From an uncultured Acidobacteriota bacterium (lineage in GTDB: Bacteria; Acidobacteriota; Blastocatellia; Pyrinomonadales; Pyrinomonadaceae): a DNA stretch of 64,000 nucleotides. The stretch's first letter is position 1. Every line of letters starts with the position of its first letter. Shown piece by piece: positions 3,223 through 50,067 of this stretch. Position numbers and translations under genes: made by a program. The DNA lies in the NCBI GenBank assembly GCA_963726075.1, contig CAVSAQ010000002.1, forward strand, positions 607,868 through 671,867. The letters are read 5' to 3'. A model generated the notes under the pieces. It had not been told where the DNA came from. It ran no database searches and saw only the letters and a list, made by a program, of their open reading frames with translations.

Positions 3223-4867
3223 ATGTCACCAATCGGATCATCATGGTCGCTTCGTGACGCAACACTAGACATTAGGCGGGCCTTTTTGCCACTGTGGGAG
3301 GCCGCGAAATTGGGAGCAACTACTCTCGTCCGATTCATTCGCGGACAACCCTTAGACTATCCCACGCTCCTGCGCAGTGCTTTAGAAAGATTGGGAGTCG
3401 CATACCTGAAGCTGGGCCAATATCTGGCCATGCGACGAGATTTTTTGCCCGCAGAACTCTGTGAGGAATTAAGCCGTTTGTATGAATCGGCCTCATATCT
3501 AGATTTCAATGAAATCAAAAAAGTAATTGAAAGCGAATTGAATGGTCCACTCGATCAGTTCTTTGCTGCCTTCGAGGAGAAGGCCATAGCGGCCGCATCG
3601 ATTGCTCAAGTACATGAAGCAAAGACTTTGGCAAATGAACGTGTAGCTGTGAAGGTACAGCGTCCTGGTATAAAACCAGTGTTTGATGCAGACATCCGCA
3701 ATCTGCATCGCGCCGCTGCAATCGCAGATGCCGTCGGCATATCTGGGACCCTACCTCTTAAAGAGATCGTAGAAGAGTTTGCTAAGTGGACCTTCGAGGG
3801 AGTTTGATTTCCTAATTGAGGGCCGCACTGCGGAACGTCTTCGCCACAATGCCACGCCGAATGAGGTCGTGCCCGTCGTCTTTTGGAACCTCTCCACAGC
3901 AAAAGTCCTCACTACGGAACTTATTGGTGGCATGAGTCTGGCCCAGATCATTGCGTTAGTTCGGCAGGGCAGAGAGGATTTGGTACGCGCGCGTCTTCCT
4001 AGTCTCGACTTCGAAGCAGCAGGGCACAATATGGCTCTTGCTTCATTACACCAGTTTTTTGTTTGTGGGTTCTTTCACGGTGATCCTCACCCGGGCAATA
4101 TTTTTATTCTTGAAGATAATTCGGTTGCTTTTGTTGACTTCGGTATCTTCGGCGAGTTGACCGACAACCTTCAGGAGATTCTGACCGGCTACATAGAAAG
4201 CGTTGCCGTCGGCAATCTCTCTGACGCCGCTCGGTACTTTTCAAAATTGTGTAGTCCCACGGAACTTACGGACCACCAGGAATTCCTCAAGGACCTCTCG
4301 TTCAACATCCATCATTGGTATCATGCCTCCAAACGTCCAGCCGCTACGTTTGAAGATCGCCACATCGGAAAGTACTTAGGGGATGTGCTTGGATCCGTGA
4401 GACGGAACCACTTGCGCATGGAGATTGATAGCCTCTTATTCTGGCGAGCGCTGAGTGCGCTTGACTATAGCGCGCTGAGCATGTCCCAGCACTTCGAACT
4501 GTTGGATCAACTTCGCCTGTTCTTCGAACAGATTCGGCCGGGACCGATTGAACGATTGATAGATGTACTTACGGATCGGCGGTTCGAAACCGAGGTGATT
4601 GAACTGACACCAAGAGTGCCGGGTTACTTCAGCGAGATCATTAGTCGCGCGTTACAAGGAGAAGGACCGGGTCGAGTTCTGGTCACGCGGGAATCCAAAA
4701 ACCGTTCAGAACTGAGGACCACACGATGTCTGACGGCTGTCTTGGTAGTTATCTCGCTAATAATCGCAGGCCAGGGAAGTCACTTTGGTATAGCAGCAGT
4801 ACTGTCAATGCTGACTGTTGCGGCAATACTCTTCAGTTTCTCCATGGTTGAGGCACGGCTGAGATGA
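3223..4867 (+). pseudogene. ABC1/UbiB-family atypical kinase, interrupted by a 1-nt frameshift near 3795..3805
   Basis: ORF 3223..3807 (LKLGQYLAMR, AAASIAQVHEA) continues as ORF 3779..4867 in the next frame (EFDFLIEGRTAERL, HGDPHPGN); the family sequence is continuous across the junction. Confidence 0.7.
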
Positions 4868-6462
4868 GCGAGAGGTTAGAAAGCGCCGATCGATCTTTCG
4901 TTGAACGTCTTGTGAACGGACCGGTCGGATTTAGGCACCGTCTCGAGCGTCTCGGTCCGGTGTTCATAAAAATAGGACAGTTCCTTGCGTTGCGCCCTGA
5001 CTTATTACCTCAAGAGTACTGCGACGAATTGATGTATTTGACTGATCGAGTTCCTGTCTTCCCGTGGGAACAAGCGAAGGCGATTTTGAAAGCCGAATTT
5101 AAGCAGGAACCCGGAAAGATTTTTGACTACATCAATCCCAATCCAGTCGCCGCGGGTTCTTTAGCACAGACCCATGTCGCTCGTTTGAGAGATGGCAGGG
5201 AAGTCGCGGTCAAAATCCAGCGACCGAATCTAGAAACTCAGGTTTTGCGCGATCTGAAACGAGCCAGACGATTGGCTCGGCTGCTCCAGATGAGTAGCCC
5301 GTCCTTCATCGTCTCACCAAACGAGGTCGTGGCCGAGTTCGCAGAGTGGCTCAGACAGGAGACAGACTTCAATCACGAACTAAACAATTTAACTCGCTTA
5401 TATAAGCTCGCCACCAACAGCAAATTTCAAAAAATACCCGAGCCATTTCCTGAATTCAGCAGTGCTAGAGTTCTAACGAGTGAGTATATCCGTGGGGTTC
5501 CCGTTACCGAGTTGTTACATGCCTTGCGCGCCCAAGGCTCTAACGGAAATCAAACAAGTAAAAGATTCGGCGTAGATCACGACCGGCTCGCCAGAAATCT
5601 GCTCTGGAGTACGCTGGTCCAGATTTTTCGGTACCAATTTTTCCACGCTGACTTGCATCCGGGAAACTTGATGGCTTTATCCGGCGACGTCGTGGGATTC
5701 GTTGACTTCGGGCTTTGTTCGGAACTTGATGAAACCGTCCGCGAACGGCAAATAAGTTACATTTCGGCGTTCTACAGTGGCAATCGCGATCGAATGTTCA
5801 AGGCCGTAACCGATTTTCTTATCGCGACTGAAGAGACAGACATAGATTCTTTTCGTGCGGATTTCATGGCTGAAACTAGCATGCGCGCACCGGTGGATCA
5901 TCCCAGTCATAATGGATCGCGCACTGAAAGAGATCGCCCTTCCATTACGCAGAGCATGGTTGCAATGTTGCGAGCTGCACGCCGCAACAGGTTGCAAGTG
6001 CCCACCAGAGTTCTCTCAATGTACAAGGCATTGCTTACCGCCGAGACAGTTGCTCACGAGCTTGGGACAAATGCTGATTTACGATCGGTGGGCCGGAATT
6101 TCTTTTTCGAGCTGCAGCGCGACGACATCATATCCAGCGTTGAACCGGATAACCTGGAGACATCAGTCCTCAGTACGGTGGCTTTGTTGCGCGATTCACC
6201 TGGTCAACTTCAACAAATCCTCACCGAATTAGCCGAGGGTAAATTTGAACTCAAAGTGAATGTTTCTGAAGGTGCCAAAGTTAGCCGGATAAAGAACCGG
6301 CGCCTGCGGTTGTTAGTGACTTCGATACTTTCGGTCTGCGTTGCCCTGCTTCTCGCAGCGCCTCGTTTGCCGGCAGTGTTCGACGACTCAAGGTGGCCGC
6401 TCTGGGTGGCATTGATCCTGCTCTACGTTTCAATTCTATTTCAATGGAGGCGTCTGAAGTGA
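4864..6462 (+). CDS. ABC1/UbiB-family atypical kinase with C-terminal TM segments
   Basis: IKIGQFLALRPD, AAGSLAQTHVA, HADLHPGN motifs; ATGA start/stop overlap with upstream paralogue. Confidence 0.85.
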   Translation: MSERLESADRSFVERLVNGPVGFRHRLERLGPVFIKIGQFLALRPDLLPQEYCDELMYLTDRVPVFPWEQAKAILKAEFKQEPGKIFDYINPNPVAAGSLAQTHVARLRDGREVAVKIQRPNLETQVLRDLKRARRLARLLQMSSPSFIVSPNEVVAEFAEWLRQETDFNHELNNLTRLYKLATNSKFQKIPEPFPEFSSARVLTSEYIRGVPVTELLHALRAQGSNGNQTSKRFGVDHDRLARNLLWSTLVQIFRYQFFHADLHPGNLMALSGDVVGFVDFGLCSELDETVRERQISYISAFYSGNRDRMFKAVTDFLIATEETDIDSFRADFMAETSMRAPVDHPSHNGSRTERDRPSITQSMVAMLRAARRNRLQVPTRVLSMYKALLTAETVAHELGTNADLRSVGRNFFFELQRDDIISSVEPDNLETSVLSTVALLRDSPGQLQQILTELAEGKFELKVNVSEGAKVSRIKNRRLRLLVTSILSVCVALLLAAPRLPAVFDDSRWPLWVALILLYVSILFQWRRLK

Positions 6463-7463: not shown

Positions 7464-7718
7464 ACTCTCGAAGAAGACGCATGGGTGAGAATTACCAGAT
7501 CGCCTGGGCGAGGACAGCGCAGTTCTTTTGGTTGTTAGTGCCATTGGCCCGTCCCGTAATGCAAGGGTCAGGCGTCTGGGTTCAAACGGTTTCAGCGATT
7601 GGTTTCGTTACATGTGACGAGGAGCGTTTTGAATTGCCTGAGCAAAAACAATAAGCGCCGCAGGCACTCTCCGTTTGTGTGAAGCGTGCGCCCGGATCGC
7701 TCTTAGAGGGGGCACATC

Positions 7719-8795
7719 ATGACAGAACCCAAACTTGTAAATCCGTCGGTCTTGCGGTTTGTGCCTAGCACGGCATGGCGCGAGGTGATTGTACCCGGAG
7801 AGGAGCAGCTCTTCGATGATTTTGCGAACCGTGTAATCGTGGCTAAACAGAAAGAAGTCGCGGCGCAGGGGGATGGAACCGTATTGCGCGGGTTCCACGC
7901 AAAGCTACACGCTGGACTGGTGGGCGAGTTTCAGGTTCTGGATGACCTGCCCGAGTATGCGCGTTTCGGAGTATTCAGTGAGCCTCGTGTCTTCCCGGCG
8001 GTGATCCGGTTCTCCAACGGCATGCCGAGTCGCGAGCGTGACAAGGGTCCGGATACGCGGGGCATCGCCATCAAGCTCATAGGTGTCCCCGGAGACAAGT
8101 TGCCGCCGAGCAATAAGGATGACGTGACTCAGGACTTCCTGGCCACGAGCCGCTCAACCATTTCGACGGTTCGCAATGCAGGGCAGTTCTTAGCGTTCAT
8201 GGACGCGTCGCGCAAACCCTGGCTACTACCCTTCAACCTCGCTCGTTCGGTAGGGGTGTACGAGTCGCTACGCATCATATCTGCGCTCTTCCGCAGCGTC
8301 GTTCTCGGCAGGGTGCGCAGCGTCGCCACGGAGCATTACTCCAGCACTGCGCCTATTAAGTTCGGGCCGTACGCGGTGAAATTCACGGTGCGGCCCGCCG
8401 AGGGCACTGAGCCACCAGCGCGCCGTCGGCGGACGGCCAACTTTTTGCGGGAGGAGTTGACGAATCGGCTGCGTAAGGGTGACTTGTTGTTCGACTTCGT
8501 TGTTCAGTTCTACGTAGACGAAAAGCGCACCCCGATTGAGGATACCTCTGTTACGTGGAAACCCAAGAACACGCCGTTCGTAAGAGTTGCGCAACTGCGT
8601 ATTCCAAGCTGTAATCTTGATGACCCTCTCATCAAGGCGCGGAGCGACGTGATTGATCGATACTTGTTCTTTCCGTGGCACTCGATCGAGGAACACCGCC
8701 CACTGGGCAATACGAATCGTTCGAGACTGGTCACTTATCAGGCGAGTGCAACTCTACGAGGGCACAGTCCCGAACCAACAAGCTTACCTCGCTAA
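7719..8795 (+). CDS. catalase-related (mini-catalase / allene-oxide-synthase-like) heme protein
   Basis: Distal-His motif LRGFHAKLHAG, FSNG motif, proximal R..VTY near C-terminus; only 358 aa. Confidence 0.7.
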   Translation: MTEPKLVNPSVLRFVPSTAWREVIVPGEEQLFDDFANRVIVAKQKEVAAQGDGTVLRGFHAKLHAGLVGEFQVLDDLPEYARFGVFSEPRVFPAVIRFSNGMPSRERDKGPDTRGIAIKLIGVPGDKLPPSNKDDVTQDFLATSRSTISTVRNAGQFLAFMDASRKPWLLPFNLARSVGVYESLRIISALFRSVVLGRVRSVATEHYSSTAPIKFGPYAVKFTVRPAEGTEPPARRRRTANFLREELTNRLRKGDLLFDFVVQFYVDEKRTPIEDTSVTWKPKNTPFVRVAQLRIPSCNLDDPLIKARSDVIDRYLFFPWHSIEEHRPLGNTNRSRLVTYQASATLRGHSPEPTSLPR

Positions 8796-14356: not shown

Positions 14357-14580
14357 GCGGACTACAACGGGCTGCGAGAGCTTCATAAAAACGCTCTATC
14401 GCGTCCGGGCGTGTGGATTGCGTTGGAACGATTTACAGGGTTGTGGCACAAACTTTATTGACGGCATTATTCGAGGGAGATTTAAGCTCACGCGCGTAGC
14501 GCAACCAAAACAATCCGAAATTGACGTTGTCACTAGCTTGGCTGCTCGAAGCCGATAGGGCACGAAAGGAGTCTCCTGTT

Positions 14581-15312
14581 ATGGGCCGCATCCTTGCTTT
14601 TCTCTACGGTGTTGTCAGTTATTTGGTCTTCTTCATCACCTTCCTGTATGCAATAGGTTTCGTCGGAAATGTATTTGTTCCCAAGTCGATCGACTCAGGC
14701 ATGCCTGGTCCGTTCGGTCAGGCACTCGTGATCGACGCGATTCTGCTGGGCCTCTTTGCGATTCCGCATAGCATCATGGCGCGGCCGGGTTTCAAAAACT
14801 GGTGGACGAAAATTGTTCCTCCAGTCGTTGAGCGCAGTACTTACGTTCTCATTTCGAGCCTGCTCTTGGCATTACTTTTCTGGCAATGGCAACCCATCCT
14901 GACCATTATTTGGGACGTGAGGAATCCAATCGGCAGCCTGGTTCTTCAAGGGCTTTTCTGGGCGGGTTGGGCGCTGGTGGTTCTCAGCACATTTCTAATT
15001 AATCACTTCGATCTATTTGGCCTGCGCCAAGTCTATGTGTATCAAGTCGGCAAGCTGTCCGGTGAATCGAAATTCAAGACGCCCAGCTTATACAAGATCG
15101 TTCGTCACCCGCTAATGCTCGGCTTCATCATCGGATTCTGGGCGACACCCAGGATGACATTGGGGCACTTGGTGTTTGCGGTTGCTAATACGGCCTACAT
15201 ACTAATCGCAATTCAATTCGAAGAGCGCGATCTGGTCAACATTCACGGGAATGCTTATGAGGAGTATCGCCGGCGGGTTTCGATGTTGCTGCCGCTGCCA
15301 AAAAAGCGCTGA
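14581..15312 (+). CDS. membrane methyltransferase, ICMT/PEMT-like (MddA-like methanethiol S-methyltransferase family)
   Basis: Multi-TM protein with INHFDLFGLRQV and LYKIVRHPLMLGF motifs typical of this family. Confidence 0.65.
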   Translation: MGRILAFLYGVVSYLVFFITFLYAIGFVGNVFVPKSIDSGMPGPFGQALVIDAILLGLFAIPHSIMARPGFKNWWTKIVPPVVERSTYVLISSLLLALLFWQWQPILTIIWDVRNPIGSLVLQGLFWAGWALVVLSTFLINHFDLFGLRQVYVYQVGKLSGESKFKTPSLYKIVRHPLMLGFIIGFWATPRMTLGHLVFAVANTAYILIAIQFEERDLVNIHGNAYEEYRRRVSMLLPLPKKR

Positions 15313-15345
15313 CCTGTTGGTCGGTGGCTGAGTATTAAGCGGTTT

Positions 15346-15601
15346 CGGCCGAAGGCGTGTTTGAATCTGTGTTGCTGGAGCGAGTTTCATTCCCAACAGT
15401 CAACACGACCACAAATAAGCGTTTCACCAGCCTTCGGGGTTATACAGATTGAGATGTGAAATGACTCCAAACTGGAATCGCGCTTCATAGCGCAGAGGAG
15501 TCAATTCAATGATAAGTAGTACCGATCACAGCAGGGCGTCAAAGAGTCACAGTGAGTTTTCACGCAATCCAGCAACACAGGTTTCAGACACTACCCGGCC
15601 G
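15346..15601. repeat. MITE-like element / long imperfect inverted repeat in selD leader region
   Basis: 34-nt arms 15346..15379 and 15568..15601 (shared CGGCCG...TGAA.CTGTGTTGCTGGA) flank about 190 nt of non-coding sequence. Confidence 0.45.
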
Positions 15602-15700
15602 AATTGTAAGGGGATCGTACTTCCGAAAATTGTTTGACATTACACGGCGAATGGGTGGACTCTTAGTTGTCTAAACTTCGCAGAGGGAGAGGGCAATCTC

Positions 15701-16732
15701 ATGCGTCTCACTGAGATGGTCTCGCGTGCTGGCTGAGCGGCTAAGCTCAGCCCGAGCATACTCGCTCAGGTCTTGAGCGAGCTACCAAGACAGCCATTCA
15801 ACGAGAATCTAATCGTAGGCTTTGAAACAGCCGATGATGCAGGAGTGTATCGTCTCAGAGACGACTTAGCGATTGTGCAGACGCTCGACTTCCTGCCGCC
15901 AATCGTGGACGACCCTCACGACTACGGGCGTATTGCCGCGCTAAATTCAATTAATGATGTTTGGGCTATGGGTGGAACTCCGATTACAGCTATCGCAATC
16001 ACTTGTTTCCCTGAAAATGGTGTCGATCCGGCGATACTCAACGAGATCAACCGTGGCGGTCTTGATACTTTGATGGAGCACGGCATTACTTTGATGGGTG
16101 GTCACAGTGTCCATAACCAGCAAATCATGTTTGGCTATTCAGTAACTGGAGTGATCGATCCGCGAAGAATCGCAACCAACAGTGGGGCGCGTTCGGGCGA
16201 CATCATCGTCCTCACGAAACCGATCGGGACAGGTGTTATCTCAGTGGGTGTCAGAGTCGAAAAAGCGAGTGAAGAAACCGCAGCGGCTTCTTTGTCGACG
16301 ATGTTAATAGCAGGCGATCATGCTGCAGAGCTTATGCGGCAGTTCGATGTTCGCGGAGCTACCGACATTACGGGCTTCGCTTTGATCGGTCACACATGGG
16401 AGATGGCTTGTGCAAGCCGCGTGACTATAGAACTCGATTCGGGTTGTGTGCCGATAATCACCGGAGCGCTGGAGTTGGCCTCGAATGGATTTCTGACGGC
16501 CAGCGACAAAACAAATCGTCAGTACGTCGGTGAAGACATCGTGATTGCTGAATCTGTCAGGCAGGAAATGAGCAATTTGCTATTCGATCCTCAGACGGCT
16601 GGAGGTATGTTGATCTCGATTTCTGCAGATCGCTCGGATGAATTGCTGGGACGTCTCCGCGAAAGGTATCCCCAGGCGACGAAGATTGGACGCGTTCTTG
16701 AGCGTGGCGAGCACTCGATTGTTGTGAAGTGA
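15701..16732 (+). CDS. selD: selenide, water dikinase (selenophosphate synthetase), Sec-containing form (UGA 15734..15736)
   Basis: ATG 15701 gives [29 protein letters not shown] in frame with ORF 15773..16732; UGA sits at the catalytic Cys/Sec of the G(C/U)xxK loop; RBS GGGAGAGGG upstream. Confidence 0.9.
15731..15781 (+). promoter_or_regulatory. candidate SECIS region of selD (two hairpins)
   Basis: GGCTGAGC-GGCTAA-GCTCAGCC (15731..15752, includes the UGA) and CTCGCTCA-GGTCT-TGAGCGAG (15761..15781, perfect 8 bp, GGUCU loop). Confidence 0.55.
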
Positions 16733-16804
16733 GTCGAGGCCTCTGATTCGCAAGCGAAATTAGGTTTCTGTATCGCATTGCTCAGTTGCAGATGGGAAGG
16801 ATTT

Positions 16805-18415
16805 ATGGCTGTCGAGACCCAATCAAGGAAAGCCCTGGCAGAGAATTGTGTTAAATCAAACCTGATTCAACTGTCTCGTCGCAACACTCCTAAACTGAGC
16901 TTTGCAGGAAAAAGAGGCAGCCAAAAGGCGATAAGGGCACTCTTTATTAACCCAGAGTTACCGGTTACCTATTGGGGCTTCCAGCATTCCACTTCATTTG
17001 AAGGTCACCGTTCGGCTTCCCCACCGCTGGGCCTGGTGACGATAGCCGCCATGCTCCCGGGGGATTGGCAGCGACGACTGGTGGATATGAACCTCCGAGC
17101 ACTTGGGACTGCTGACTTGGAATGGGCGGATATTGTGTTCGTCACCGGCATGATTGTCCAAAAGGAATCACTCCATCACGTCGTCGATTTGTGCAAGCAG
17201 TATGGGAAACGTGTAGTAGTTGGCGGACCGTACATTACGACCAGTCCGGAGACTCTCCCGCACGCGGATCACATCTTTCTTGGGGAAGCCGAGACTACCT
17301 TTCCGGAATTCCTGCGCGACCTGAAAGACGGCCAACCGAAACGGATCTACAAGGCGAATGAACGACCGCCACTTTCGCTGGTGCCTTTACCGGACATAAG
17401 CCTCCTTGATCTAAAGCAATACAGCTTCATGTCGTTGCAATACTCGCGCGGCTGCCCCTTCAACTGCGAGTTCTGCGACATCATTGAGATTTACGGTCGC
17501 GTTCCTCGCACCAAGGGAAACGAGCAGGTGATTGCTGAGTTGGACGCACTCCTCCGAGCCGGTTGGTACGGGATAGTCTTCATCGTTGATGACAACTTTA
17601 TCGGCAACAAGCGCAACGTCAAGCGTTTGCTCCCAGATTTGATCGACTGGTCCGAACGACATCACCACCCTTTCTCTTTCGCGACTGAGGCGAGCGTGAA
17701 TCTCGCAGACGACGACGACTTGCTGGAGATGATGCGGCGCGCGGGTTTCCGCCACGTATTTATTGGCATTGAAACACCGGTTGAGGCGTCTCTGAGGGAG
17801 ACACAGAAAAAGCAGAACACGCATCGAGATCTTCTCGAATCAGTCAAGAAAGTTCAGAGCTATGGCATTGAAGTAATGGCAGGTTTTATCGTTGGATTCG
17901 ACAATGATCCTGACGATATTTTCGAGCGCCAAATCAACTTCATAAGGGAAAGCGCCATCCCAATGGCAATCGTCAGTTTATTAACTGCTCTCCCGGAGAC
18001 ACAACTTTGGCGCAGGCTTAACAAGGAGGGAAGGCTTCTCACGGAAAGCACGGGCAATCTTACCGATAGCACGCTAAACTTTGTCCCCAGGATGGACGCG
18101 TCGCGCCTCGTTGATGGGTACAAGATGATTATGCGCACGATCTATAGCCCTGGTGAGTATTACGAGCGTGTCCTTAATTGTCTGGCGCAGCTGCGACGAT
18201 ATAGGCGGGCACCTCGGCGACTCTCACCCGCCGGCGAAATTGCTGCATTGACTCGCGTCGTCGTTAGGCTCGGTATGCGCGGTCACGGGCGGCGCGAGTT
18301 TTGGCGATTCATGAAGCGTGTTTTGGTCTCACATCGCCAAGAGCTACCAAATGCGGTGATGCTGGCCGCAATGGGCCATCACTTCAGAAAGCTTACGGAG
18401 ATATATTGCCGATAA
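16805..18415 (+). CDS. B12-binding-domain radical SAM protein (DUF4070-type C-terminus)
   Basis: N-terminal B12-binding-like region ([13 protein letters not shown]), CxxxCxxC ([13 protein letters not shown]), long C-terminal extension. Confidence 0.85.
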
Positions 18416-18672: not shown

Positions 18673-19809
18673 ATGACGCAACACCGATCTCTTCTTACCG
18701 TACTCTGGTTGTTGGCATTTGTTACTTCCAGTTGCGCTCAGACGAAGCAGGAACGTGAACCTGTCGCCGCCGCCCCGCCGCGGCTCATTTGGCAACATGA
18801 CACTGGTGGTTGACTGTTCTCGGTCCCCGCGGTCGCGGAGGATACGGTCTTCGTCGGTTCATGTGCCGGAATTTTCTATGCGTTCAACAAAGCTACGGGG
18901 GCGGTGCGGTGGAGTTATGACATTGGGAAAGATGGAAAGCAAAAGAGCTTTCATGGGAACCCGTTAATTACCGATGATTTGATTCTGATTGGCACTGATC
19001 TTAACTGTGTGCCCGATGGCGTTGGGCACGTCTACGCTTTTGAAAGAAGCACCGGCAAAGTGCGCTGGAAGTATCAAACAACCAGTGTCCCTACAGACAT
19101 CCTCCGTATCGGCCCGAACGTTTATTTCGGCAGCTTCCAGGATAATTGGTACGCAGTTGCGCTGCGGACTGGTGAGTTGGTCTGGAAATTTTCAACCGGC
19201 TCACCAAATGAAAGCTGCGACATGATCAAATCGCCGGTTGCTGATGACCGGCATCTTTACATCACCGGAATGGATGGAATTGTCTACTCGCTTGAGGCCG
19301 CATCCGGTCGCGTCGCCTGGAAACGAAAGCTGCCCGCGGCTCCCTCGACTGGTTTGGCGCTCAAGGGCAAGACGCTTTTTGTCGGCGCCAGCAACAATCA
19401 GATTTATCGACTGAACGCCGAGACGGGAACCACCGTTGCCGAGTTCCCGGTAGTGGCGATGCCTTTTGGAAGAATCACGTGGACCGCCAACGCACTGCTG
19501 TTGTTTTTAGACAATCGCTCGGAACGTGCGGGATACGTTGTTACAGTCGATCCGGATCTAAAGAAAGCGCGATGGCAGCAGTCATCTGCGAATTGGAGAT
19601 CCGAACGTCCTCACGCCTGGGGGGATCTGGTCGTGGCCGGTAACTGTCGCGGTGAGGTAGAAGCATTTCAGGCTTCTGACGGTGCGCCACAGTGGCAGCT
19701 GAATCTGAAGGGCTGTATTTCGAGCATTGGGAGTTCCGAAAAGAGAATGTTTGTTGGCGTGCAGGAGGGAACGCTTTACGCGTATGAACTCTTGTCGCCA
19801 AAGCAATAG
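18673..19809 (+). CDS. PQQ-like (BamB-type) beta-propeller lipoprotein with in-frame UGA 18811..18813 (candidate selenoprotein; alternatively a nonsense pseudogene)
   Basis: ATG 18673 encodes lipoprotein signal MTQHRSLLTVLWLLAFVTSSC; the frame continues through TGA with no other stop into ORF 18904..19809; repeated W...G..YA...TG..W propeller blades. Confidence 0.6.
18824..18842 (+). promoter_or_regulatory. candidate bacterial SECIS hairpin
   Basis: TCC-CCGC-GGTC-GCGG-A-GGA: 7 bp with one bulged A, GGUC loop at 18831..18834, 17 nt after UGA (same spacing and apex as at 2283). Confidence 0.55.
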
Positions 19810-19834: not shown

Positions 19835-20311
19835 ATGAAACGTTTAGGATTAGTAGTCGCAATCGCAATCGCGGTCGTTGGCTTCGCCATCGGCCAAAAC
19901 ATGAGCCACTCATCAGATCATGGCTTCTTCCAAACAGCGGACCTGAAGTGGACGGACGGACCGGCATCTCTGTCAAAGGGAGCGAAGGTCGCTTTGATGG
20001 AAGGTAATCCGGCTCAGGAAGGTCCATTCACGATGCGCTTGCATCTACCGGACGGTTTTAAGATTCAGCCGCATTCGCATCCGGCCGTTGAGCACGTCAC
20101 CGTGATCTCCGGCACGTTCAATCTCGGCATGGGCGAGAAGTTTGACACGTCTGCGGGCCGCGCCCTGCCCGCCGGCTCTTTTGCTTTCATGCAGCCCGGT
20201 ATGAAGCACTTCGCCTGGGCGAAGGGAGAGACTGTGGTTCAGGTGCACGGGATCGGCCCCTGGAAAATTAATTACGTGAATCCAGCGGACGATCCGAGAA
20301 ATCAGAAGTAG
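19835..20311 (+). CDS. secreted cupin-domain protein
   Basis: Signal peptide, cupin motifs (HSHPAVEHVTVISG ... MKHF); 25 nt after the propeller gene, RBS AGAGGAG. Confidence 0.7.
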   Translation: MKRLGLVVAIAIAVVGFAIGQNMSHSSDHGFFQTADLKWTDGPASLSKGAKVALMEGNPAQEGPFTMRLHLPDGFKIQPHSHPAVEHVTVISGTFNLGMGEKFDTSAGRALPAGSFAFMQPGMKHFAWAKGETVVQVHGIGPWKINYVNPADDPRNQK

Positions 20312-24310: not shown

Positions 24311-24889
24311 ATGAAGCGTATGGGACTCTTTCACATCTTAGCGATGGCCGCAGTGTTGGCGTTGTGGTGTGTGTCGGCGACAGCGCAGGAGATCAAGTTT
24401 AATTTCATGCCCGGGACCGATTTTTCGAAATACCGCACCTATAAGTGGGTGCGCGTTCCGAAAGCCGAATATCCCAATCAAATCCTCGATACGCAAATTA
24501 TGCAGGCCATCGACGCCCAGCTGTCTATAAAAGGCCTGGCCAAGACCGACGGCGAAGCTCCGGATCTCTATGTCGCGTACCAAGCGGCGGTAAACCAGGA
24601 GAAGCAATGGAATTCGTACAGTACTGACATGGGCGGGTTTGGCTATGGCCGATGGGGCGGCTGGGGAGGATATGGCGGCGGTATGTCAACCACGACTACC
24701 ACGAGTGAGACGATAAATATTGGCACCTTGAATGTAGACATCTACGATGTGGCCGCGAAGAACCAGATTTGGCGCGGCGCGGCGACCAAGACGCTCGGTT
24801 CGGGCAAAGATCCATCCAAAGTCCAGAGGAACATTAATAAGGCCATGGAGAAACTTTTCAAGAAATATCCTCCCCCAGCGAAGAATTAA
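24311..24889 (+). CDS. DUF4136-like secreted/lipoprotein with Gly/Trp-rich insert
   Basis: Signal peptide; FSKYRTYKW and DLYV motifs typical of DUF4136; GGFGYGRWGGWGGYGGG insert. Confidence 0.55.
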   Translation: MKRMGLFHILAMAAVLALWCVSATAQEIKFNFMPGTDFSKYRTYKWVRVPKAEYPNQILDTQIMQAIDAQLSIKGLAKTDGEAPDLYVAYQAAVNQEKQWNSYSTDMGGFGYGRWGGWGGYGGGMSTTTTTSETINIGTLNVDIYDVAAKNQIWRGAATKTLGSGKDPSKVQRNINKAMEKLFKKYPPPAKN

Positions 24890-25028
24890 GTCGGTTGTGT
24901 GGCCGTTCGTGGAAGACAGCCGGCCAGGGCTCGATGACGGCAGCCGCAAGTGGCTGATCCTGTTGTTGTCGCTACTCCAACAGGCGACCGTCAGGCCGCT
25001 CAACTCTTTCGTTGGACTTGCTGCGACC

Positions 25029-27308
25029 ATGCGACAGTTGTTCATCGGCACTCTCCTTTTTATTCTCCCTACACTAGTACTTGCTCAAAACACGCGTCCC
25101 CTACCGCAACGGCGTCAGGCCAAGCGGTCGAATCAAGTCAGAAACTCGGCTCACGTGCGTGACTGGGAAAATCGCGTGATGTCCCGCGTGCTATCCAACG
25201 ACCCGAAGGTCCGGATAACCGCCGAAGCCGCCCTGGTCCAACGGAGGGAGCGTTCGCTTCCCTTGCTGAGGCGACTCCTCAACCATGGCGATGAAGATCT
25301 GGATCAAAGGACTTTTAAGATCATCCAGCGGATTGGTCCACGGGCCATTCCGCTGCTGGTGGAACTGCTTCGGCATGACGACGTCTCTCTCCGGCGCAGC
25401 GCTCTTAATGAATTGATTGACCTGGTGCCCGATACGGAACCGATTCAACCGGCGTTGAGGCGGGCTCTGAAAGACGAGGATTCGATAGTTGTGGGTGATG
25501 CCGCACGTGCCTTGGGCGCTTTGGGCCCTAAGGCGAGTCCTTCGGTACGCGCTCTGGTTCAGACTCTCTCGCACGACGATCCATACGTTCGCATTTACGT
25601 GGCTGAGGCCTTGGCCTCCATCGGTCCGAAGGCGCGCGCGGCGACCAAAGACCTCGCCAGAGCGCTGAGCGATCCGATTCCCGGTGTCCGTTGGGCGGCG
25701 TGTGAGGCTCTCGCAAGCATTGGCCCGGCCGCGCAGTCCGCAGTGCCGCAGTTGATCGAAGCTCTGAAGGATGAATTCCTCTATGTGCGCATCTTCGCGG
25801 CTGGTGCACTGGGAAGCATCCAACCGAGGACACAGACGGCAGTTGAGGCGCTGAGAGCGGCCGCAAACGATCCCGCGATGCGTGACGAAGTGTTGTGGGC
25901 GTTGAATCGAATCGCCGGCGTCGAGTCCGGACAGACTGTCGTCTCAACCCGCATATCCTCCCCCACTCCTGCGCCCCAACCTGCGACGACAGTGGCCCCA
26001 ACGGGCAATCCCCCGGTTGAGTGGAATATCACCACGGGGAAGAACATCGTCTGGAGCGTCGAATTGGGAAACGAGACGTTTGGGAGTCCGGTAGTTGCCG
26101 GCAATTTGGTCTATGTGGGTACCGACAACGACAGAAAAATGAACCCCGCCTTCCAGGAAGAGTCCGGCGTGCTCATGGCTTTTCGGATTACGGATGGCGC
26201 GTTCCTTTGGCAGGACGTGGCCCCGCGAGTTGAGCGCGGACTGCGGGAATTTCTGCTGCCTTCGACGACTAGCGCACCGTATGTGGAAGGTAACCGTTTG
26301 TACTACGTCACCGCTGAGTGCCAACTTCGTTGCCTCGACACGCAGGGGTTTCTCGACGACGGGAACGTTGGCCCATTTCGAGAAGAGGTCTTCAAGGACC
26401 GTGCTGCGGCCGATATCGTCTGGGAACTGGACATGGCCCGCTTGGGTGTCTATCCGCATGAAGCCTGCAACAGCGAGGTTCTGCCTGTGGGTAATCTACT
26501 GGTGGTCTCTACTTCCAACGGCCAGAATGAAGGCCACACGCGCGTCCCATCGCCGCGCGCCCCAAGTCTGATCGCCGTGAACAAACACTCGGGCGAAGTC
26601 GTCTGGCGTGCGATGGGCGCGGGCGATCAGGTTTTGCATGGCCAGTGGTCCAGCCCGGTGGCGGCAAATGTCAACGGACGCATGCAGGTGCTCTTCGGCG
26701 GAGGAGATGGCTGGCTGCGCGCTTACGACGCAGCGGCGGGCCGAGAAGTCTGGCGATTCGACGGCAATCCGAAAGACGCCCGCTTTCTTCCGCGCCCCGG
26801 CGTACTTTCGCGCAGCGCTATCATTGCTTCACCGGCGTTCGCCGACGGCCGCGTCTTCATCGCGATGGGGCAGAGTCCAGGCCACGGCGATGGACCTTCT
26901 CTGATTCATGCCGTCAGTCCCAACGGCCAGGGAGAAGTCACCGAGAGCAGACTCCTCTGGACTTCTCGCGAGGTGGGCCGCGTGGTTGGCACGCCCATCG
27001 TGAAAGACGGTCTGCTGTACGTTGGGGACCTGGGCGGAACGATTCATTGTCTGGACGCGACAACCGGCGCAACAGTCTGGAAGCACGACACGTTCGAGGC
27101 CATCTGGGGTTGCCTCCTGCTGGCCGGCGACCGCCTTTACGTTGGGAACGCGGCCGGCAGCATGACCGTTTTACGTGCCGGACGGCGAAAGGAATTGCTG
27201 GCGCAGATCGAAATGGATGCGCCGCTCTATTCGCGTCCGGCGGTGAGCGGCGATGCGCTTTACTTGGCCACTGCCAGCCGCTTGTACCTTATCGCGGCAA
27301 GGCCTTGA
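25029..27308 (+). CDS. secreted HEAT-repeat plus PQQ-like beta-propeller protein
   Basis: Signal peptide; repeated HEAT units (D..VR..AA.ALG.IGP.A); C-terminal propeller blades (G..VW). Confidence 0.75.
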   Translation: MRQLFIGTLLFILPTLVLAQNTRPLPQRRQAKRSNQVRNSAHVRDWENRVMSRVLSNDPKVRITAEAALVQRRERSLPLLRRLLNHGDEDLDQRTFKIIQRIGPRAIPLLVELLRHDDVSLRRSALNELIDLVPDTEPIQPALRRALKDEDSIVVGDAARALGALGPKASPSVRALVQTLSHDDPYVRIYVAEALASIGPKARAATKDLARALSDPIPGVRWAACEALASIGPAAQSAVPQLIEALKDEFLYVRIFAAGALGSIQPRTQTAVEALRAAANDPAMRDEVLWALNRIAGVESGQTVVSTRISSPTPAPQPATTVAPTGNPPVEWNITTGKNIVWSVELGNETFGSPVVAGNLVYVGTDNDRKMNPAFQEESGVLMAFRITDGAFLWQDVAPRVERGLREFLLPSTTSAPYVEGNRLYYVTAECQLRCLDTQGFLDDGNVGPFREEVFKDRAAADIVWELDMARLGVYPHEACNSEVLPVGNLLVVSTSNGQNEGHTRVPSPRAPSLIAVNKHSGEVVWRAMGAGDQVLHGQWSSPVAANVNGRMQVLFGGGDGWLRAYDAAAGREVWRFDGNPKDARFLPRPGVLSRSAIIASPAFADGRVFIAMGQSPGHGDGPSLIHAVSPNGQGEVTESRLLWTSREVGRVVGTPIVKDGLLYVGDLGGTIHCLDATTGATVWKHDTFEAIWGCLLLAGDRLYVGNAAGSMTVLRAGRRKELLAQIEMDAPLYSRPAVSGDALYLATASRLYLIAARP

Positions 27309-44792: not shown

Positions 44793-45758
44793 ATGAAGCA
44801 AGCAACCGCAACAGGAACTGGAAAGTACGAACGACTCTTAGAGCGCTGCGCGAGCTTGGAGCCGGTCCCAACCGCCGTCGTCTATCCGTGTGAAGCGGCG
44901 GCGCTCGCCGGCGCACTTGAAGCCGCTGAGAAGAAATTGATTGTGCCGATTCTGATTGGCCCGGCAGAACAAATCCATGCCACTGCGAAATCCGCGGGGC
45001 TCGATCTTCTTAACTTGCGGGTTGTGGATGTACCAGACAGCCAAGGCTCTGCGAAAAAAGCGGTGGAACTCATTCGCGAAGGCAAAGCGGACGTCTTAAT
45101 GAAAGGAAGTCTGCATACCGACGAGTTGATGTCGGCCATTGTTTCGCGCGAAGGCGGTCTTCGTACCGGGCGTCGCATCAGTCACGTATTCATCATGGAT
45201 GTGCCGACGTATCACAAAGTGCTGATCGTCACGGATGCTGCAATCAATATCGCACCCGCCCTTGAAGACAAAGTTGACATCTGTCAGAACGCGATCGATC
45301 TGGCCATCTCGCTTGGTCTTGAGAAACCGAAGGTCGCGATTCTCTGTGCGGTTGAGACTGTAAATTCGAGGATGCCGGCAACGCTCGACGCCGCGGCACT
45401 CTGCAAGATGGCCGAACGCGGACAAATCAAGGGAGGAATTCTCGATGGACCGTTGGCGTTCGATAACGCGATCAGTAAGGACGCCGCAAAAACGAAAGGC
45501 ATCAAGTCAGAGGTTGCCGGCGATCCGGACATTTTGCTCGCGCCCGATTTGGAAGCGGGCAATATCCTCGCCAAGCAGCTCAGTTTCCTCGCGAATGCCG
45601 ATAGTGCAGGGATGGTCTTAGGCGCGCGAGTGCCGGTGATACTCACCAGTCGCGCCGACAGTGTCCGATCGCGAATTGCGAGTTGCGCGGTTGTCAAGTT
45701 GGTGACCCATGCGCGGCGCAGCAGGAAAGTGTCATGGACGACTATGCACTGGTTGTAA
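44793..45758 (+). CDS. pta: phosphate acetyl/butyryl-transferase (PTA_PTB family)
   Basis: PTA_PTB motifs (ADVLMKGSLHT, ILLAPDLEAGNILAK, PVILTSRADS). Confidence 0.8.
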   Translation: MKQATATGTGKYERLLERCASLEPVPTAVVYPCEAAALAGALEAAEKKLIVPILIGPAEQIHATAKSAGLDLLNLRVVDVPDSQGSAKKAVELIREGKADVLMKGSLHTDELMSAIVSREGGLRTGRRISHVFIMDVPTYHKVLIVTDAAINIAPALEDKVDICQNAIDLAISLGLEKPKVAILCAVETVNSRMPATLDAAALCKMAERGQIKGGILDGPLAFDNAISKDAAKTKGIKSEVAGDPDILLAPDLEAGNILAKQLSFLANADSAGMVLGARVPVILTSRADSVRSRIASCAVVKLVTHARRSRKVSWTTMHWL

Positions 45759-47047
45759 ACGCGGGCTCATCGAGCCTGAAGTTCTGCGTGTTTCAGCGGC
45801 CAAGCGGAGGGAATTGGCGGTTGGAGGCGCAGGGCCAGATCGAGGGCATTGGCACATCGGCCCGATTGTCTGTCAAGGGCGCCAATGGTGAGCGGCTGGC
45901 TCATCAGCAGCTCGCTCACTCTGTACGTGACGGACGTGATGCGATCGATGCCCTCGCTCGCTGGCTTGGATCCAAATATGGCGGCGCGCGAGTGCTCGCG
46001 GTTGGCCATCGCGTTGTCCACGGGGGCACACGCTTTGCCGCGCCCACGATTGTGAACCAGAAGGTAATAGAAAATCTTCACGATCTAATTCCACTCGCTC
46101 CTTTGCATCAGCCTTACAACCTCGCCGCTATTGAAGCTGTCTCTGAACGGCTTCCTGGCGTTCCGCAAGTTGGCTGTTTCGACACCAGTTTTCATCGCGG
46201 CCATGCCCGCGTGACTGACCTAATTCCGCTACCACGTGCAATCTGTAAGTCGGGTGTGGAACGCTACGGCTTTCACGGCATCTCGTACGAATACATCGCT
46301 TCGATCCTGCCAGAGGTCGCGCCCGAGATCGCAAACGGAAGAGTAATCGTGGCGCATCTCGGCAGCGGCGCCAGTCTCTGCGCGCTGAAGGATGGGAAGA
46401 GCGTTGACACGACCATGGGTTTCACGGCCGTTGATGGGTTGTGCATGGGAACGCGGCCGGGAGCAATCGATCCGGGTGTCGTCCTTTTTCTTTTTCAAAC
46501 GCTCGGCCTCTCCGCCAAAGAAGTCGAGACAATCCTCTACAGGAGGTCCGGCCTGCTGGCGATTTCCGAAATCAGTAATGACATGCGCGACCTGTTGGTG
46601 AGGACCGAACCCAAAGCGCGTCTCGCGGTGGACTACTTCGTCTATCGCGCCGCGAAAGAGATCGGGGCGCTGACAGCCGCGCTCGGCGGCGTTGATGCGG
46701 TGGTGTTCACCGCAGGCATCGGCGAGAACTCACCCGAGATCCGACGACGGATCTGTGAAGCATCCGCATGGTTGGGAATGGAACTTAGCGAAGACGCAAA
46801 CGCCAACAACGCCACGCGAATTTCTAAACCGGAGAGCAAGGTTTCGGTTTGGATGATCCCGACAAATGAAGAACTGATGATCGCCCGACATACGGGAAGA
46901 CTTCTGGGATTAAATTCTCGGGCACAGAGAAGGCAGCGTAAGGAGAAACGAAGATGGCCAGTGCAAAAGCAGAAATTGCAATTGAACGCGATCAAGCGAG
47001 AAAGCCGTGGGCGGGATTCCAACCCGGTCTCTGGCAAAAGGAAATAA
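45734..47047 (+). CDS. ackA: acetate kinase (with unusual basic C-terminal extension overlapping pflB)
   Basis: [43 protein letters not shown]; the ORF runs about 40 codons past the usual family end. Confidence 0.85.
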
Positions 47048-49218
47048 ACGTTCGCGACTTCATCCAGCAGAACTTTACTCCGTACGAAGGAGATGATTCC
47101 TTTCTCGCCCCGGCAACTGAGAGAACCACGAATCTTTGGGCTCGGCTCAGCGAATTGTTTCTCGAGGAACGCAAAAAAGGTGTGCTCGACGTCTCACAAA
47201 TTCCCACTTCGATCACCGCGCACGCACCCGGCTACATCGATCGCCAAAACGAAGTCATCGTCGGTCTGCAAACCGAAGCTCCTTTGAAGCGCGCCATCAT
47301 GCCCAATGGCGGCTTCCGCATGATCGTGAATGCGCTAAAGACGTACGGATACGAGCCGGACCCGCAGGTCGTTGAAACCTTTACTAAGTATCGTAAAACG
47401 CACAATGACGGGGTGTTCGATGCCTACACAGACGACATTCGGCGCTGTCGGAGCTCACATATTCTTACGGGCCTGCCGGACGCCTACGGCCGCGGGCGCA
47501 TCATTGGTGATTACCGGCGGGTGGCGCTCTATGGGGTAGCGCGCTTGATTGAACAAAAGCAGGAAGAGAAGCGCAGTCTCGACTCCGCAATGTCCACCGA
47601 AGACATTATTCGCGACCGCGAGGAGCTGAGCGAACAAATTCGCTCACTCAAAGAATTGCAGCAGATGGCGGTGAGTTATGGTTTTGATATTTCCATTCCG
47701 GCGAGCAACGCAAAGGAAGCTGTGCAGTGGCTTTACCTTGGCTATCTCGCGGCAGTGAAGGAACAAAATGGAGCAGCGATGTCGCTGGGCCGTACTTCGA
47801 CGTTTCTCGACATCTATTTCCAGCGCGATCTCGAGGCCGGTACGCTGACGGAAGAACAGGTACAAGAGATCATCGATGACTTTGTCATCAAGTTGCGCAT
47901 TGTGCGGTTTCTGCGAACGCCCGAATATGACGACTTGTTTGCGGGCGATCCAACCTGGGTTACCGAATCGATCGCCGGCATGGGCGACGATGGTCGGCCG
48001 CTAGTGACGAAGAGCAGCTTTCGCTTTCTCCACACGCTCTACAACCTCGGTCCGGCGCCAGAACCGAACATGACGATCTGGTATTCACCGCGCTTGCCGG
48101 ATGGATTTCGTAGTTACTCAGCAAAGGTGGCGATCGAAACCAGCTCAATTCAATTCGAGAGCGATGAAATCATGCGACGCGAGTGGGGTGACGACGGCGC
48201 CGTGGCGTGCTGCGTCTCGCCAATGTTAATGGGCAAGCAAATGCAGTTCTTTGGAGCGCGTGCGAACCTCGCGAAGTGCCTTCTTTATGCAATCAACGGC
48301 GGCCGCGACGAAATCACCGGAGATCAGGTGGGGCCGGTAATAGTCGAGGTAGAAGGCGACTACCTGGACTTCGACGACGTGCTGGACCGGTTCGAGCAGA
48401 TGATGGATTGGCTCGCCCGCGTTTACGTTAACGCGATGAACGTGATCCATTACATGCATGACAAGTATGCCTACGAGCGACTCAAGATGGCCCTGCATGA
48501 CTATGCGCCGTTGCGGACGATGGCCTTCGGCATGGCCGGCATGTCGGTGGTTGCTGACAGTCTTTCGGCAATTCGTTACGCAAAGGTGAAAGTGATTCGC
48601 GACGACACGGGATTAGTCACTGATTACAAAACGGAAGGTGAGTTTCCGCACTTCGGTAATAACGACAATCGCGTTGACCATCTCGCCGCTTGGCTGGTGA
48701 CGACCTTCATGGGCAAGCTGCGAAAGCACCCCACCTACCGTAACGCTCTCCACACCCAGTCAATTCTGACTATTACCTCGAACGTCGTGTACGGCAAGAA
48801 CACCGGCAATACGCCTGATGGGCGGCGACGCGGAGAACCATTTGCTCCCGGCGCCAATCCGATGCACGGACGCGACGTGCACGGAATTCAGGCATCGGCG
48901 GCTTCGGTGGCCAAGATTCCTTACCGCGATGCTGCGGATGGAATTTCTTTAACGACGACGCTGGTGCCGGAAGGTCTTGGACGAGTAATCGCTGAGCGGA
49001 TCACGAATCTCCGCAGCATGCTCGATGCGTTCTTCAGCATTACGGGCTATCACATGAACGTGAATGTCCTCAATCGCGAGATGCTTTTATATGCCATGGA
49101 TCATCCCGAGAAGTATCCGCACCTGACGATTCGTGTCTCGGGTTACGCGGTTAACTTTGTACGTCTGACCCGCGAGCAGCAACTGGATGTAGTCAACCGA
49201 ACCTTCCATGGAATGTAA
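46954..49218 (+). CDS. pflB: pyruvate formate-lyase (formate C-acetyltransferase)
   Basis: Active-site VACCVSPM and glycyl-radical motif [11 protein letters not shown]; N-terminus [25 protein letters not shown]. Confidence 0.95.
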
Positions 49219-49344
49219 GACATGCGCGCTGCACGGCTCGTACAACCGAATTCGATAGAAGGCGCCAGCCCGTATGAGCTTCGCGTGGATCAAGCCGCAG
49301 GGGTTTCGGAGTCAGCAGTGAAGACGGCTTTGGAAACTGGAGAC

Positions 49345-50067
49345 ATGGGCTTCCTGCATTCATTCACCACTGGCTCTACGGTGGACGGGCCCGGCGTGCG
49401 TGTGGTGGGTTGGACTGCCGGGTGTCAGTTTCGCTGCCTTTACTGTCACAACCCGGACACGTGGAAAATGCTGAACGGCATGCCTGTAACGGTGGAGCGG
49501 GCCGTTCAGTCGATCAACAAATATCGTCATAGCCTGAGAATCATGTCGGGAGGATTCACGTTGAGCGGTGGCGAACCGCTAATGCAAGACCGGTTCGCGA
49601 TTAGATTGTTTACCGCCGTCAAGGCGCTGGGCATCCATACCGCGCTGGACACGAATGGTTTTCTTGGCGAGCGGCTTTCGGACGAAGAGTTGGACCAAAT
49701 CGATTTGGTTCTGCTGGACATCAAGGCCTGGGACGCGGAACGACATCGCGCGCTGACCGGAAAGGACGTCGGTCCAACACTGGACTTCGCCCGCCGCCTG
49801 GCTGACGGTAACCGGCCGATTTGGCTTCGCTTCGTCCTGGTTCCCGGTTTGACTGACGACGATGAGAATGTCACCTCGATCGCGAAGTTCGCCGGTGAAT
49901 TAGGCAACGTCCGGAGGGTGGACGTGCTCCCGTTCCATCAGATGGGCCGATTCAAGTGGAAGAAGCTCGAGCTCGACTACGCGCTTAACAGCATAGAGCC
50001 TCCATCGCGACATGCGGTCGCGCGAGCTTGTGCTCAGTTTCAAGCCGAGGGGCTCGCAGCGTATTGA
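49345..50067 (+). CDS. pflA: pyruvate formate-lyase activating enzyme (ORF open from 49222; Met 49345 matches the family N-terminus)
   Basis: GFLHSFTTGSTVDGPGVR and CQFRCLYCHNPDTW radical-SAM cluster motif. Confidence 0.9.
   Translation: MGFLHSFTTGSTVDGPGVRVVGWTAGCQFRCLYCHNPDTWKMLNGMPVTVERAVQSINKYRHSLRIMSGGFTLSGGEPLMQDRFAIRLFTAVKALGIHTALDTNGFLGERLSDEELDQIDLVLLDIKAWDAERHRALTGKDVGPTLDFARRLADGNRPIWLRFVLVPGLTDDDENVTSIAKFAGELGNVRRVDVLPFHQMGRFKWKKLELDYALNSIEPPSRHAVARACAQFQAEGLAAY

Follow-up and report, generated by a model that had tools for sequence, protein, structure and literature searches.

The propeller gene and its in-frame TGA

The stretch of DNA analysed here (the window: all 64,000 nucleotides, positions 607,868 to 671,867 of contig CAVSAQ010000002.1) comes from an uncultured acidobacterium of the family Pyrinomonadaceae and carries, on its + strand at 18673..19809, a gene for a beta-propeller protein whose reading frame is crossed by a TGA codon. 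As read from the sequence, the gene has 378 codons plus a TAG stop: an in-frame stop lies four codons 5' of ATG 18673, which is the first start after that stop, and the frame then runs through 46 codons to the TGA at 18811-18813 (codon 47) and is open from there up to the TAG at 19807-19809, so that the TGA is its sole interruption. Residues 1-21, MTQHRSLLTVLWLLAFVTSSC (18673..18735, + strand), read as a hydrophobic signal peptide ending in a lipobox-type cysteine, Cys21 (TGC 18733-18735), and the residues around codon 47 as ...DTGG-U-LFSVPAVAEDTVFVGSCAG..., where U stands for selenocysteine (Sec). The joined protein matches the Pfam PQQ_2/BamB-type propeller (PQQ, pyrroloquinoline quinone) with E = 4e-34. 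An earlier note on this DNA had proposed a single frame across the TGA with a lipoprotein-type signal at its head, and frame, TGA and Cys21 are indeed all in place.

Thirteen nucleotides downstream of the TGA, at 18824..18842 of the + strand, lies a hairpin of the type expected for a bacterial selenocysteine insertion sequence (SECIS), found just as the earlier note had described it, with its bulged A. Its arms are CCCCGC and GCGG(A)GG, its stem pairs bases 14-20 with 25-31 as counted from the U of the UGA, and its GGUC loop (18831-18834) occupies bases 21-24. Farther along, the + strand encodes Cys64 (TGT, 18862..18864), the proposed resolving partner of residue 47, as well as His94 (CAT, 18952..18954) and Asp109 (GAT, 18997..18999). 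Judging from the comparisons that follow, which place it well outside what chance would give, the TGA is very probably a genuine Sec codon and the gene a selenoprotein gene with a conserved SECIS; it represents a new selenoprotein family, in which the recoding mechanism is the ordinary bacterial one.

Conservation of the UGA and its hairpin

The codon aligned with codon 47 is TGA in all 46 family loci that were examined as DNA, at 31-88% protein identity, the floor being set by a tblastn match in locus L064. The set comprises the window itself, seven genome loci from Pyrinomonadaceae and other Acidobacteriota metagenome-assembled genomes (TGA in 7/7), 28 metagenome loci reaching the column (28/28), eight distant cluster representatives with fetched DNA and 31-49% identity (8/8), and the two loci L067 and L068, which have the TGA at the Sec column too. 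A strand with the motif W-x-[FY]-D-T-G-G is conserved in frame upstream of the TGA in every one of the 46, and in-frame signal peptides, read from sequence, precede the TGA in all orthologues, the eight distant representatives included; the signal ends in Cys in most Pyrinomonadaceae copies, and several distant members have ordinary signal peptides without it.

In the protein databases the same column appears as a boundary. None of the 120 closest database proteins (62-100% identical) starts before the residue that follows the UGA; many of them are exactly 331 residues long because the codon after the UGA is usable as a start codon. When 50%-identity cluster representatives were searched exhaustively, 434 matches below 1e-30 were returned; of the 94 listed representatives with a single domain, 87 have their start beyond the Sec column, four span it with Cys (P0158, P0168, P0205 and P0270, all uninterrupted full-length homologues; the codons are TGC/TGT in L058 and L066) and three span it with Ala (P0175, P0197 and P0251). 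None of the homologues has Trp, Arg or Gly there, apart from an artefactual W in P0272. Orthologues with Cys or TGA at this column were what the earlier note had asked to be looked for, and the 46 TGA loci, the four Cys forms and the absence of Trp and Arg answer that request in its favour.

These observations bear on the reading adopted by all annotation pipelines, namely that the TGA is a true stop separating a 46-residue secreted peptide from a separately initiated, signal-less propeller, or else marks a pseudogene or an assembly error. In its favour, the TGA is often followed by GTG or TTG, codons usable as a start; in the window, however, it is followed directly by CTG, not a start codon. 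Moreover, across 46 independent assemblies, at identities as low as 31%, both TGA and frame persist, the W-x-[FY]-D-T-G-G residues before the TGA are not only conserved but form a confidently modelled propeller strand in the Cys homologue P0168, and the Cys homologues run through without interruption. We therefore regard a true stop as scarcely credible, in agreement with the remark in the earlier note that two genes would make little sense here. A sequencing error at the TGA was likewise considered and rejected, as the same TGA recurs in dozens of independent assemblies.

Hardly more credible is the decoding of the UGA as Trp, Gly or Cys by an altered code or near-cognate read-through, which would find its only database precedent in P0272, an entry with W at the Sec column. 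The DNA of P0272 has TGA, and its product is not translatable under code 11, so the W is a gene-caller artefact. Furthermore, TGA is used more often than any other ordinary stop in the window, ending 24 of its 43 genes, from which it follows that the genetic code is standard, while homologues carry Cys and never Trp or Gly, and both a conserved SECIS and selD are present. As to the origin of that entry, the JGI gene call (L067, 318-1421) reads through the TGA and writes Trp, probably because of a code-4 model applied to a short contig; entries of this kind could mislead searches for Trp at Sec columns.

The hairpin is conserved along with the codon. A GGUC tetraloop at bases 21-24, closed by the 14-20/25-31 stem, occurs in 28 of 29 distinct sequences, with a perfect 7-bp helix in distant members and the bulged A on the 3' arm limited to some members. 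The loop thereby falls within the span of about 16-37 nt after the UGA in which the apical-loop G of a bacterial SECIS is expected. Over these 29 sequences 87% of the helix cells are paired, as against 39-66% in slid registers, and 19 cells are changed on both sides compared with 5.3 in shuffles, a value that none of 500 shuffles reaches. The number of pairs with compensatory changes (3 vs 2.4 in shuffles, with 204/500 reaching 3) is not distinctive by itself. The stem pair formed by two silent third positions is CG in 22 sequences, UA in 2, AU in 2, GC in 1 and UG in 1, and the outer silent pair 15-30 is CG in 14, GC in 6, UG in 3, GU in 1 and UA in 1. In addition, the two loop codons have third-position entropies of 0.39 and 0.20 bits, in contrast to 1.5-1.9 bits at other four-fold sites; in the host, GCG makes up 36% of Ala codons and GTC 31% of Val codons. 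The hairpin thus covaries, silent sites included, as the earlier note had proposed to check.

Several points weigh against reading the TGA as Sec. The 66 nt surrounding the UGA are predicted to fold into a structure that includes the hairpin, lengthened here by a lower stem, but its single-sequence energy is no better than that of shuffled sequence (z = -0.42), and the window sequence alone therefore decides nothing on the hairpin. The codons for Pro-Ala-Val-Ala-Gly (CCN GCN GTN GCN GGN) are self-complementary, so that the protein motif by itself supplies four of the five inner stem pairs, and an Ala-type paralogue, too, has a comparable hairpin, with GGUA in its loop. Finally, the window contains no tRNA gene and hence no tRNA-Sec, and selA and selB are absent among the 10 large window open reading frames (ORFs) scanned. 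The warning in the earlier note that the apex simply encodes Ala-Val-Ala is accordingly valid as far as self-complementarity goes, but it does not suffice to account for the data: since the silent loop positions are frozen and the silent pairs compensated, the protein sequence cannot explain the hairpin.

Other genes of the window speak for Sec use by this organism. At 15701..16732 (+ strand) lies selD, encoding selenophosphate synthetase (TIGR00476, 315.6 bits vs a cut-off of 125), the sole piece of Sec machinery found within the window and itself a selenoprotein gene, with an in-frame TGA at 15734-15736 in the motif G-U-A-A-K; the Sec-type selD that had been noted 2 kb upstream is thus real, at a distance of 1.9 kb. 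Its hairpin presents a GGUCU loop at bases 35-39 after the UGA, farther downstream than in the propeller gene and in an AhpD/CMD-like (CMD, carboxymuconolactone decarboxylase) selenoprotein gene at 1945-2628. The latter has its TGA at 2263-2265 in a C-R-Y-U (CxxU) motif and probably belongs to a catalogued selenoprotein family, its name being taken from its earlier label and the motif. Its UGA is followed by a 7-bp stem and GGUC loop (hairpin 2276-2293, stem bases 14-20/25-31) in a register identical to that of the propeller gene, which bears out the shared apex and spacing pointed out in the earlier note. On the + strand of the window, GGUC-tetraloop hairpins with a TGA exactly 17 nt upstream number two, compared with 0.1 expected in shuffles; 200 shuffles never gave more than one, and both real cases are the in-frame TGAs of these two genes.

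A comparable side observation was made in L064, where a peroxiredoxin called as two ORFs (7624-8136) is one gene with an in-frame TGA in F-T-P-G-U, a known peroxiredoxin selenoprotein type; it lies 650 nt downstream of the distant propeller-family member. As L064 encodes a T-P-G-U peroxiredoxin selenoprotein, its organism also uses Sec.

Fold, invariant residues and gene neighbourhood

An AlphaFold2 model was built for the Cys homologue P0168, which shares 35% identity with the window protein across the region matched, with 60 family sequences, and reached a predicted local distance difference score (pLDDT) of 87.9 and a predicted template-modelling score (pTM) of 0.86. In a Foldseek search its best PDB neighbours were BamB structures (template-modelling score, TM, 0.73-0.83; 19-20% identity), followed by designed 'Cake' propellers, YxaL and tetrathionate hydrolase. 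By this model, the exported window protein is an eight-bladed BamB-like propeller. A scan of the joined protein against NCBIfam found no specific family that fits, the BamB model being the best match. Identity with BamB itself was rejected, the scores of 107.4 bits against 285.2 (TIGR03300) and 94.3 against 423 (NF008351) lying far below the curated cut-offs, and so was identity with a quinoprotein, as the 378-residue protein scored 81.8 bits against 480 for PQQ-dependent dehydrogenase (TIGR03075).

In the P0168 model the residue equivalent to Sec47 sits in the loop that joins the N-terminal strand (residues 32-38) to strand A, and would thus lead into the innermost strand of blade 1; Cys64 would lie in the loop between strands B and C of the same blade, as placed by the secondary structure of the model. 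In four-stranded propeller blades, the loop before strand A and the B-C loop emerge on the same face. In a repeat alignment, His94 (in the loop into strand A) and Asp109 fall in the corresponding loops of blade 2, and Asp109 coincides exactly with Cys64 of blade 1.

Conservation singles out the same residues. A Cys at +17, that is Cys64, is found in 63/63 Sec-type representatives covering the column and in 4/4 Cys-type, but in 0/3 Ala-type proteins, and the cysteine that the earlier note had offered as a possible resolving partner therefore tracks the Sec/Cys column perfectly. Besides structural Gly and Trp, the only invariant residues in the 69 Sec-type representatives are C64, F93, H94 and D109, which are relaxed in Cys and Ala forms; all four Cys forms keep both cysteines, yet two of them lack the His and two the Asp. 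A redox couple of Sec47 and Cys64 is likely, as far as the modelled topology can indicate.

Fusions occur among Sec-type members. In P0210 (L068), for which TGA and hairpin are both present in the DNA, the propeller is followed by a C-terminal TlpA/Redoxin domain containing WTDTCPFC, and this fused CxxC domain fits thiol-disulfide exchange with a thioredoxin-fold partner. P0172, P0256 and P0264 end in a DUF6265 domain, and P0161 and P0191 in a ChaN-like region.

The surroundings of the gene may hint at its substrate. Twenty-five nucleotides after its stop, at 19835..20311 (+ strand), follows a gene for a small secreted cupin (Cupin_7/DUF4437-like by Pfam matches), which is probably co-transcribed with it and which is also found downstream of the propeller in L001, L002, L003, L007, L014/15 and L027. 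Just upstream, at 14521-18415, mddA, selD and a gene for a B12-binding radical S-adenosylmethionine (SAM) protein (DUF4070) are arranged head to tail, a grouping that may point to methylation chemistry of sulfur or selenium; the radical-SAM protein cannot be assigned to any specific family. The product of mddA (14521..15312, + strand), an H2S/methanethiol S-methyltransferase, scores 376.9 bits vs a cut-off of 270 (NF045656), and the gene is a recurrent neighbour in the subclade of the window, being upstream also in L005, L021, L023-25, L040 and L043. As described in PMC11445057, MddA methylates H2S and methanethiol, and its neighbourhood suggests a link with small sulfur or selenium compounds. 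A promoter scan found nothing.

In the Pyrinomonadaceae the gene belongs to a recurring cluster with, in this order, a divergent LysR gene, a THAP4/DUF1579-like beta-barrel, a UbiE/ArsM-like SAM-methyltransferase, sometimes mddA, the propeller and the secreted cupin. The window departs from this, its upstream places being occupied by mddA, selD and the DUF4070 gene. The window homologue of the LysR gene stands 17 kb from the propeller gene, beside the AhpD/CMD-like selenoprotein gene: it lies at 669-1547 on the - strand, its product is 63% identical to the regulator flanking the propeller cluster in sister genomes, and it adjoins a 40-residue remnant of the beta-barrel gene of the cluster (539-658). 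The cluster has apparently been rearranged in this genome. Between the upstream beta-barrel and the fused DUF6265 domain there is a weak likeness (BLASTP E = 5e-4 over 46 residues), which may mark a conserved partner; a Pfam match to DUF6265 is absent for the beta-barrel neighbour.

Our proposed mechanism runs as follows. SelB with Sec-tRNA(Sec) would bind the GGUC-loop hairpin inside the coding sequence and deliver Sec at the A-site UGA, a decoding step that we infer from the established bacterial mechanism. The pre-protein would then be exported and probably lipid-anchored at Cys21. On one face of blade 1, Sec47 in the loop before strand A and Cys64 in the B-C loop would cycle between the selenol/thiol and selenenylsulfide states, assisted by the invariant His94 and Asp109 on the neighbouring blade, and together the four residues could form a chalcogen-based site for redox or transfer chemistry in the periplasm, with a thioredoxin-fold protein as the reductant that recycles it. 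Our best guess for the substrate is a small sulfur or selenium species, because methyltransferase genes adjoin the propeller gene. In its full form, we hypothesize a first beta-propeller selenoenzyme, a periplasmic catalyst whose Sec-Cys-His-Asp site lies on the propeller face, acting on small sulfur or selenium species such as H2S, methanethiol, their disulfides or selenium analogues, together with MddA or a SAM-methyltransferase and the secreted cupin, in soil Acidobacteriota; so specific a scheme is tentative, and we hold it to be possible rather than probable.

Four considerations weaken this scheme. The proximity of Sec47 and Cys64 is derived from propeller topology and the secondary structure of the model; the Redoxin fusion is limited to a single cluster; and the gene context is conserved only in Pyrinomonadaceae, distant loci having differing, unrelated neighbours (the methyltransferases near L059 and L068 show no detectable homology to the Pyrinomonadaceae methyltransferase). 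Furthermore, His94 and Asp109 are equally compatible with a metal site or a nucleophile triad, which leads to two other readings of the same residues.

In the first of these the UGA still encodes Sec, and Sec47, Cys64, His94 and Asp109 would coordinate a metal or metalloid (Cu, Zn, Ni, As/Se species). Sec, Cys, His and Asp are a typical soft-metal ligand set, and the four residues are jointly invariant in the 69 Sec-type representatives and relaxed once Sec is replaced. The upstream methyltransferase weakly matches arsenite methyltransferase models, the gene in L068 has an ArsR-type regulator and a methyltransferase close by, and several metal-binding selenoprotein families figure in a 2026 catalogue (PMC13188914). 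On the other hand, a ligand set is difficult to reconcile with Cys forms that keep both cysteines while dispensing with His or Asp, the fused CxxC thioredoxin-fold domain favours thiol-disulfide exchange, and the conserved neighbours include no metal transporter or chaperone. A metal centre thus seems to us unlikely, albeit conceivable.

The second reading makes Sec47, His94 and Asp109 the catalytic triad of a hydrolase, lyase or transferase acting on sulfur or selenium compounds, with Cys64 as an accessory; such a protein would be akin to Cys-His-Asp enzymes or, in its action on sulfur compounds, to tetrathionate hydrolase. The invariance of His94 and Asp109 next to Sec47 agrees with it, as do the neighbouring mddA and SAM-methyltransferase genes and the presence of tetrathionate hydrolase, a periplasmic propeller active on sulfur compounds, among both sequence and fold matches; this last likeness is of fold level only (13-14% identity), and a two-chalcogen couple better accounts for the way in which Cys64 strictly follows the Sec/Cys column. 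We consider a triad improbable, and retain the Sec47/Cys64 couple as the working view of the site.

Elsewhere in the window, an ABC1 atypical-kinase gene is split in two frames (3223-3807 and 3779-4867) by a frameshift, as a pseudogene or through an assembly error, and is followed by a second, intact ABC1 kinase gene at 4864-6462. A second PQQ-like protein, with no sign of Sec, is encoded at 24747-27308 and has 853 residues with C-terminal BamB-like repeats (residues ~747-844). Acetate kinase (45683-47047) and pyruvate formate-lyase (46954-49218) are fermentative genes which, in a Pyrinomonadaceae genome, suggest a facultatively anaerobic lifestyle; the ORF at 49222-50067 after the latter may encode the lyase activase.

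Novelty and relation to known systems

Cys forms usually outnumber Sec forms in selenoprotein families. In the present family it is the Sec forms that far outnumber the Cys forms, with at least 63 clusters against four, which makes it a good family in which to ask why selenium has been kept. The family is large and mostly from soil Acidobacteriota, and its members are cut short by gene callers at the Sec codon; the affected clusters number dozens, from Pyrinomonadaceae, Thermoanaerobaculia, candidate division KSB1 and unnamed metagenome lineages, and the cut products are labelled 'PQQ-binding-like beta-propeller repeat protein' or 'BamB' by NCBI and JGI. As these database members are N-terminally truncated and signal-less, both their location and their chemistry are mis-predicted, and a curated model that includes the Sec position would correct the annotation immediately.

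The claim in the earlier note that described bacterial selenoproteins include no propeller is supported by the literature. The May 2026 catalogue of 119 prokaryotic selenoprotein families (Zhang et al. 2026) has no propeller, PQQ or BamB entry, and none of its families carries PF13360, PF01011, PF13570 or a propeller description (PMC13188914, Table 1). Propeller, PQQ and BamB terms are likewise absent from the main texts of the PMC13188914 review, deep-Sep, the BSepDB paper and Haft's 2022 preprint, and full-text literature searches returned no publication linking propeller, PQQ or BamB with selenocysteine. With this family a non-thioredoxin, all-beta fold joins the bacterial selenoproteome, in which the SECIS is written on the codons of a Pro-Ala-Val-Ala-Gly strand, recoding signal and protein motif sharing one stretch. 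A propeller selenoenzyme, if true, would be a new catalytic use of both Sec and the BamB-like fold.

Among known propellers, BamB (YfgL) is the closest in build, both proteins being eight-bladed PQQ_2-type propellers of ~350 residues with a lipobox-type signal. BamB, however, has neither the Sec/Cys pair nor a catalytic site, and the gene in the window lacks the context of beta-barrel assembly machinery (BAM) genes. The PQQ-dependent alcohol and methanol dehydrogenases share the repeat type, and a loop on their active-site face holds a redox-active vicinal Cys-Cys, but they are ~600 residues long and their ligands are PQQ and Ca or a lanthanide. Their Cys-Cys loop presumably leads into an innermost strand, as the Sec47 loop does; the alignments start a few residues past it and do not extend over it. 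We know of no PQQ-dependent dehydrogenase that is a selenoprotein. A further propeller protein, SELENBP1/SBP56 methanethiol oxidase, is tied to methanethiol metabolism according to PMC5739008 and PMC10362175; it belongs to another propeller family, is copper-dependent and contains no Sec, and the mddA neighbourhood alone links it to the protein described here.

With respect to recoding, the hairpin is reminiscent of the SECIS of E. coli fdhF, which also lies within the coding sequence just past the UGA and has a GGUC apical loop. In fdhF that loop occupies bases 22-25, with G23 and U24 contacting SelB. In contrast to it, the propeller hairpin has no bulged U on its 5' arm and sits on Pro-Ala-Val-Ala-Gly strand codons. 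Finally, the catalogued envelope selenoproteins, comprising DsbA/DsbG-like proteins, thiol:disulfide interchange proteins, the TlpA-family UGC proteins and the FCYXU TonB-dependent receptor (PMC13188914, Table 1), resemble the propeller protein in being exported and in their presumed thiol/selenol redox roles. Most of them are thioredoxin folds with UxxC or CxxU motifs, whereas in the propeller the partner Cys stands 17 residues away, in a different loop.

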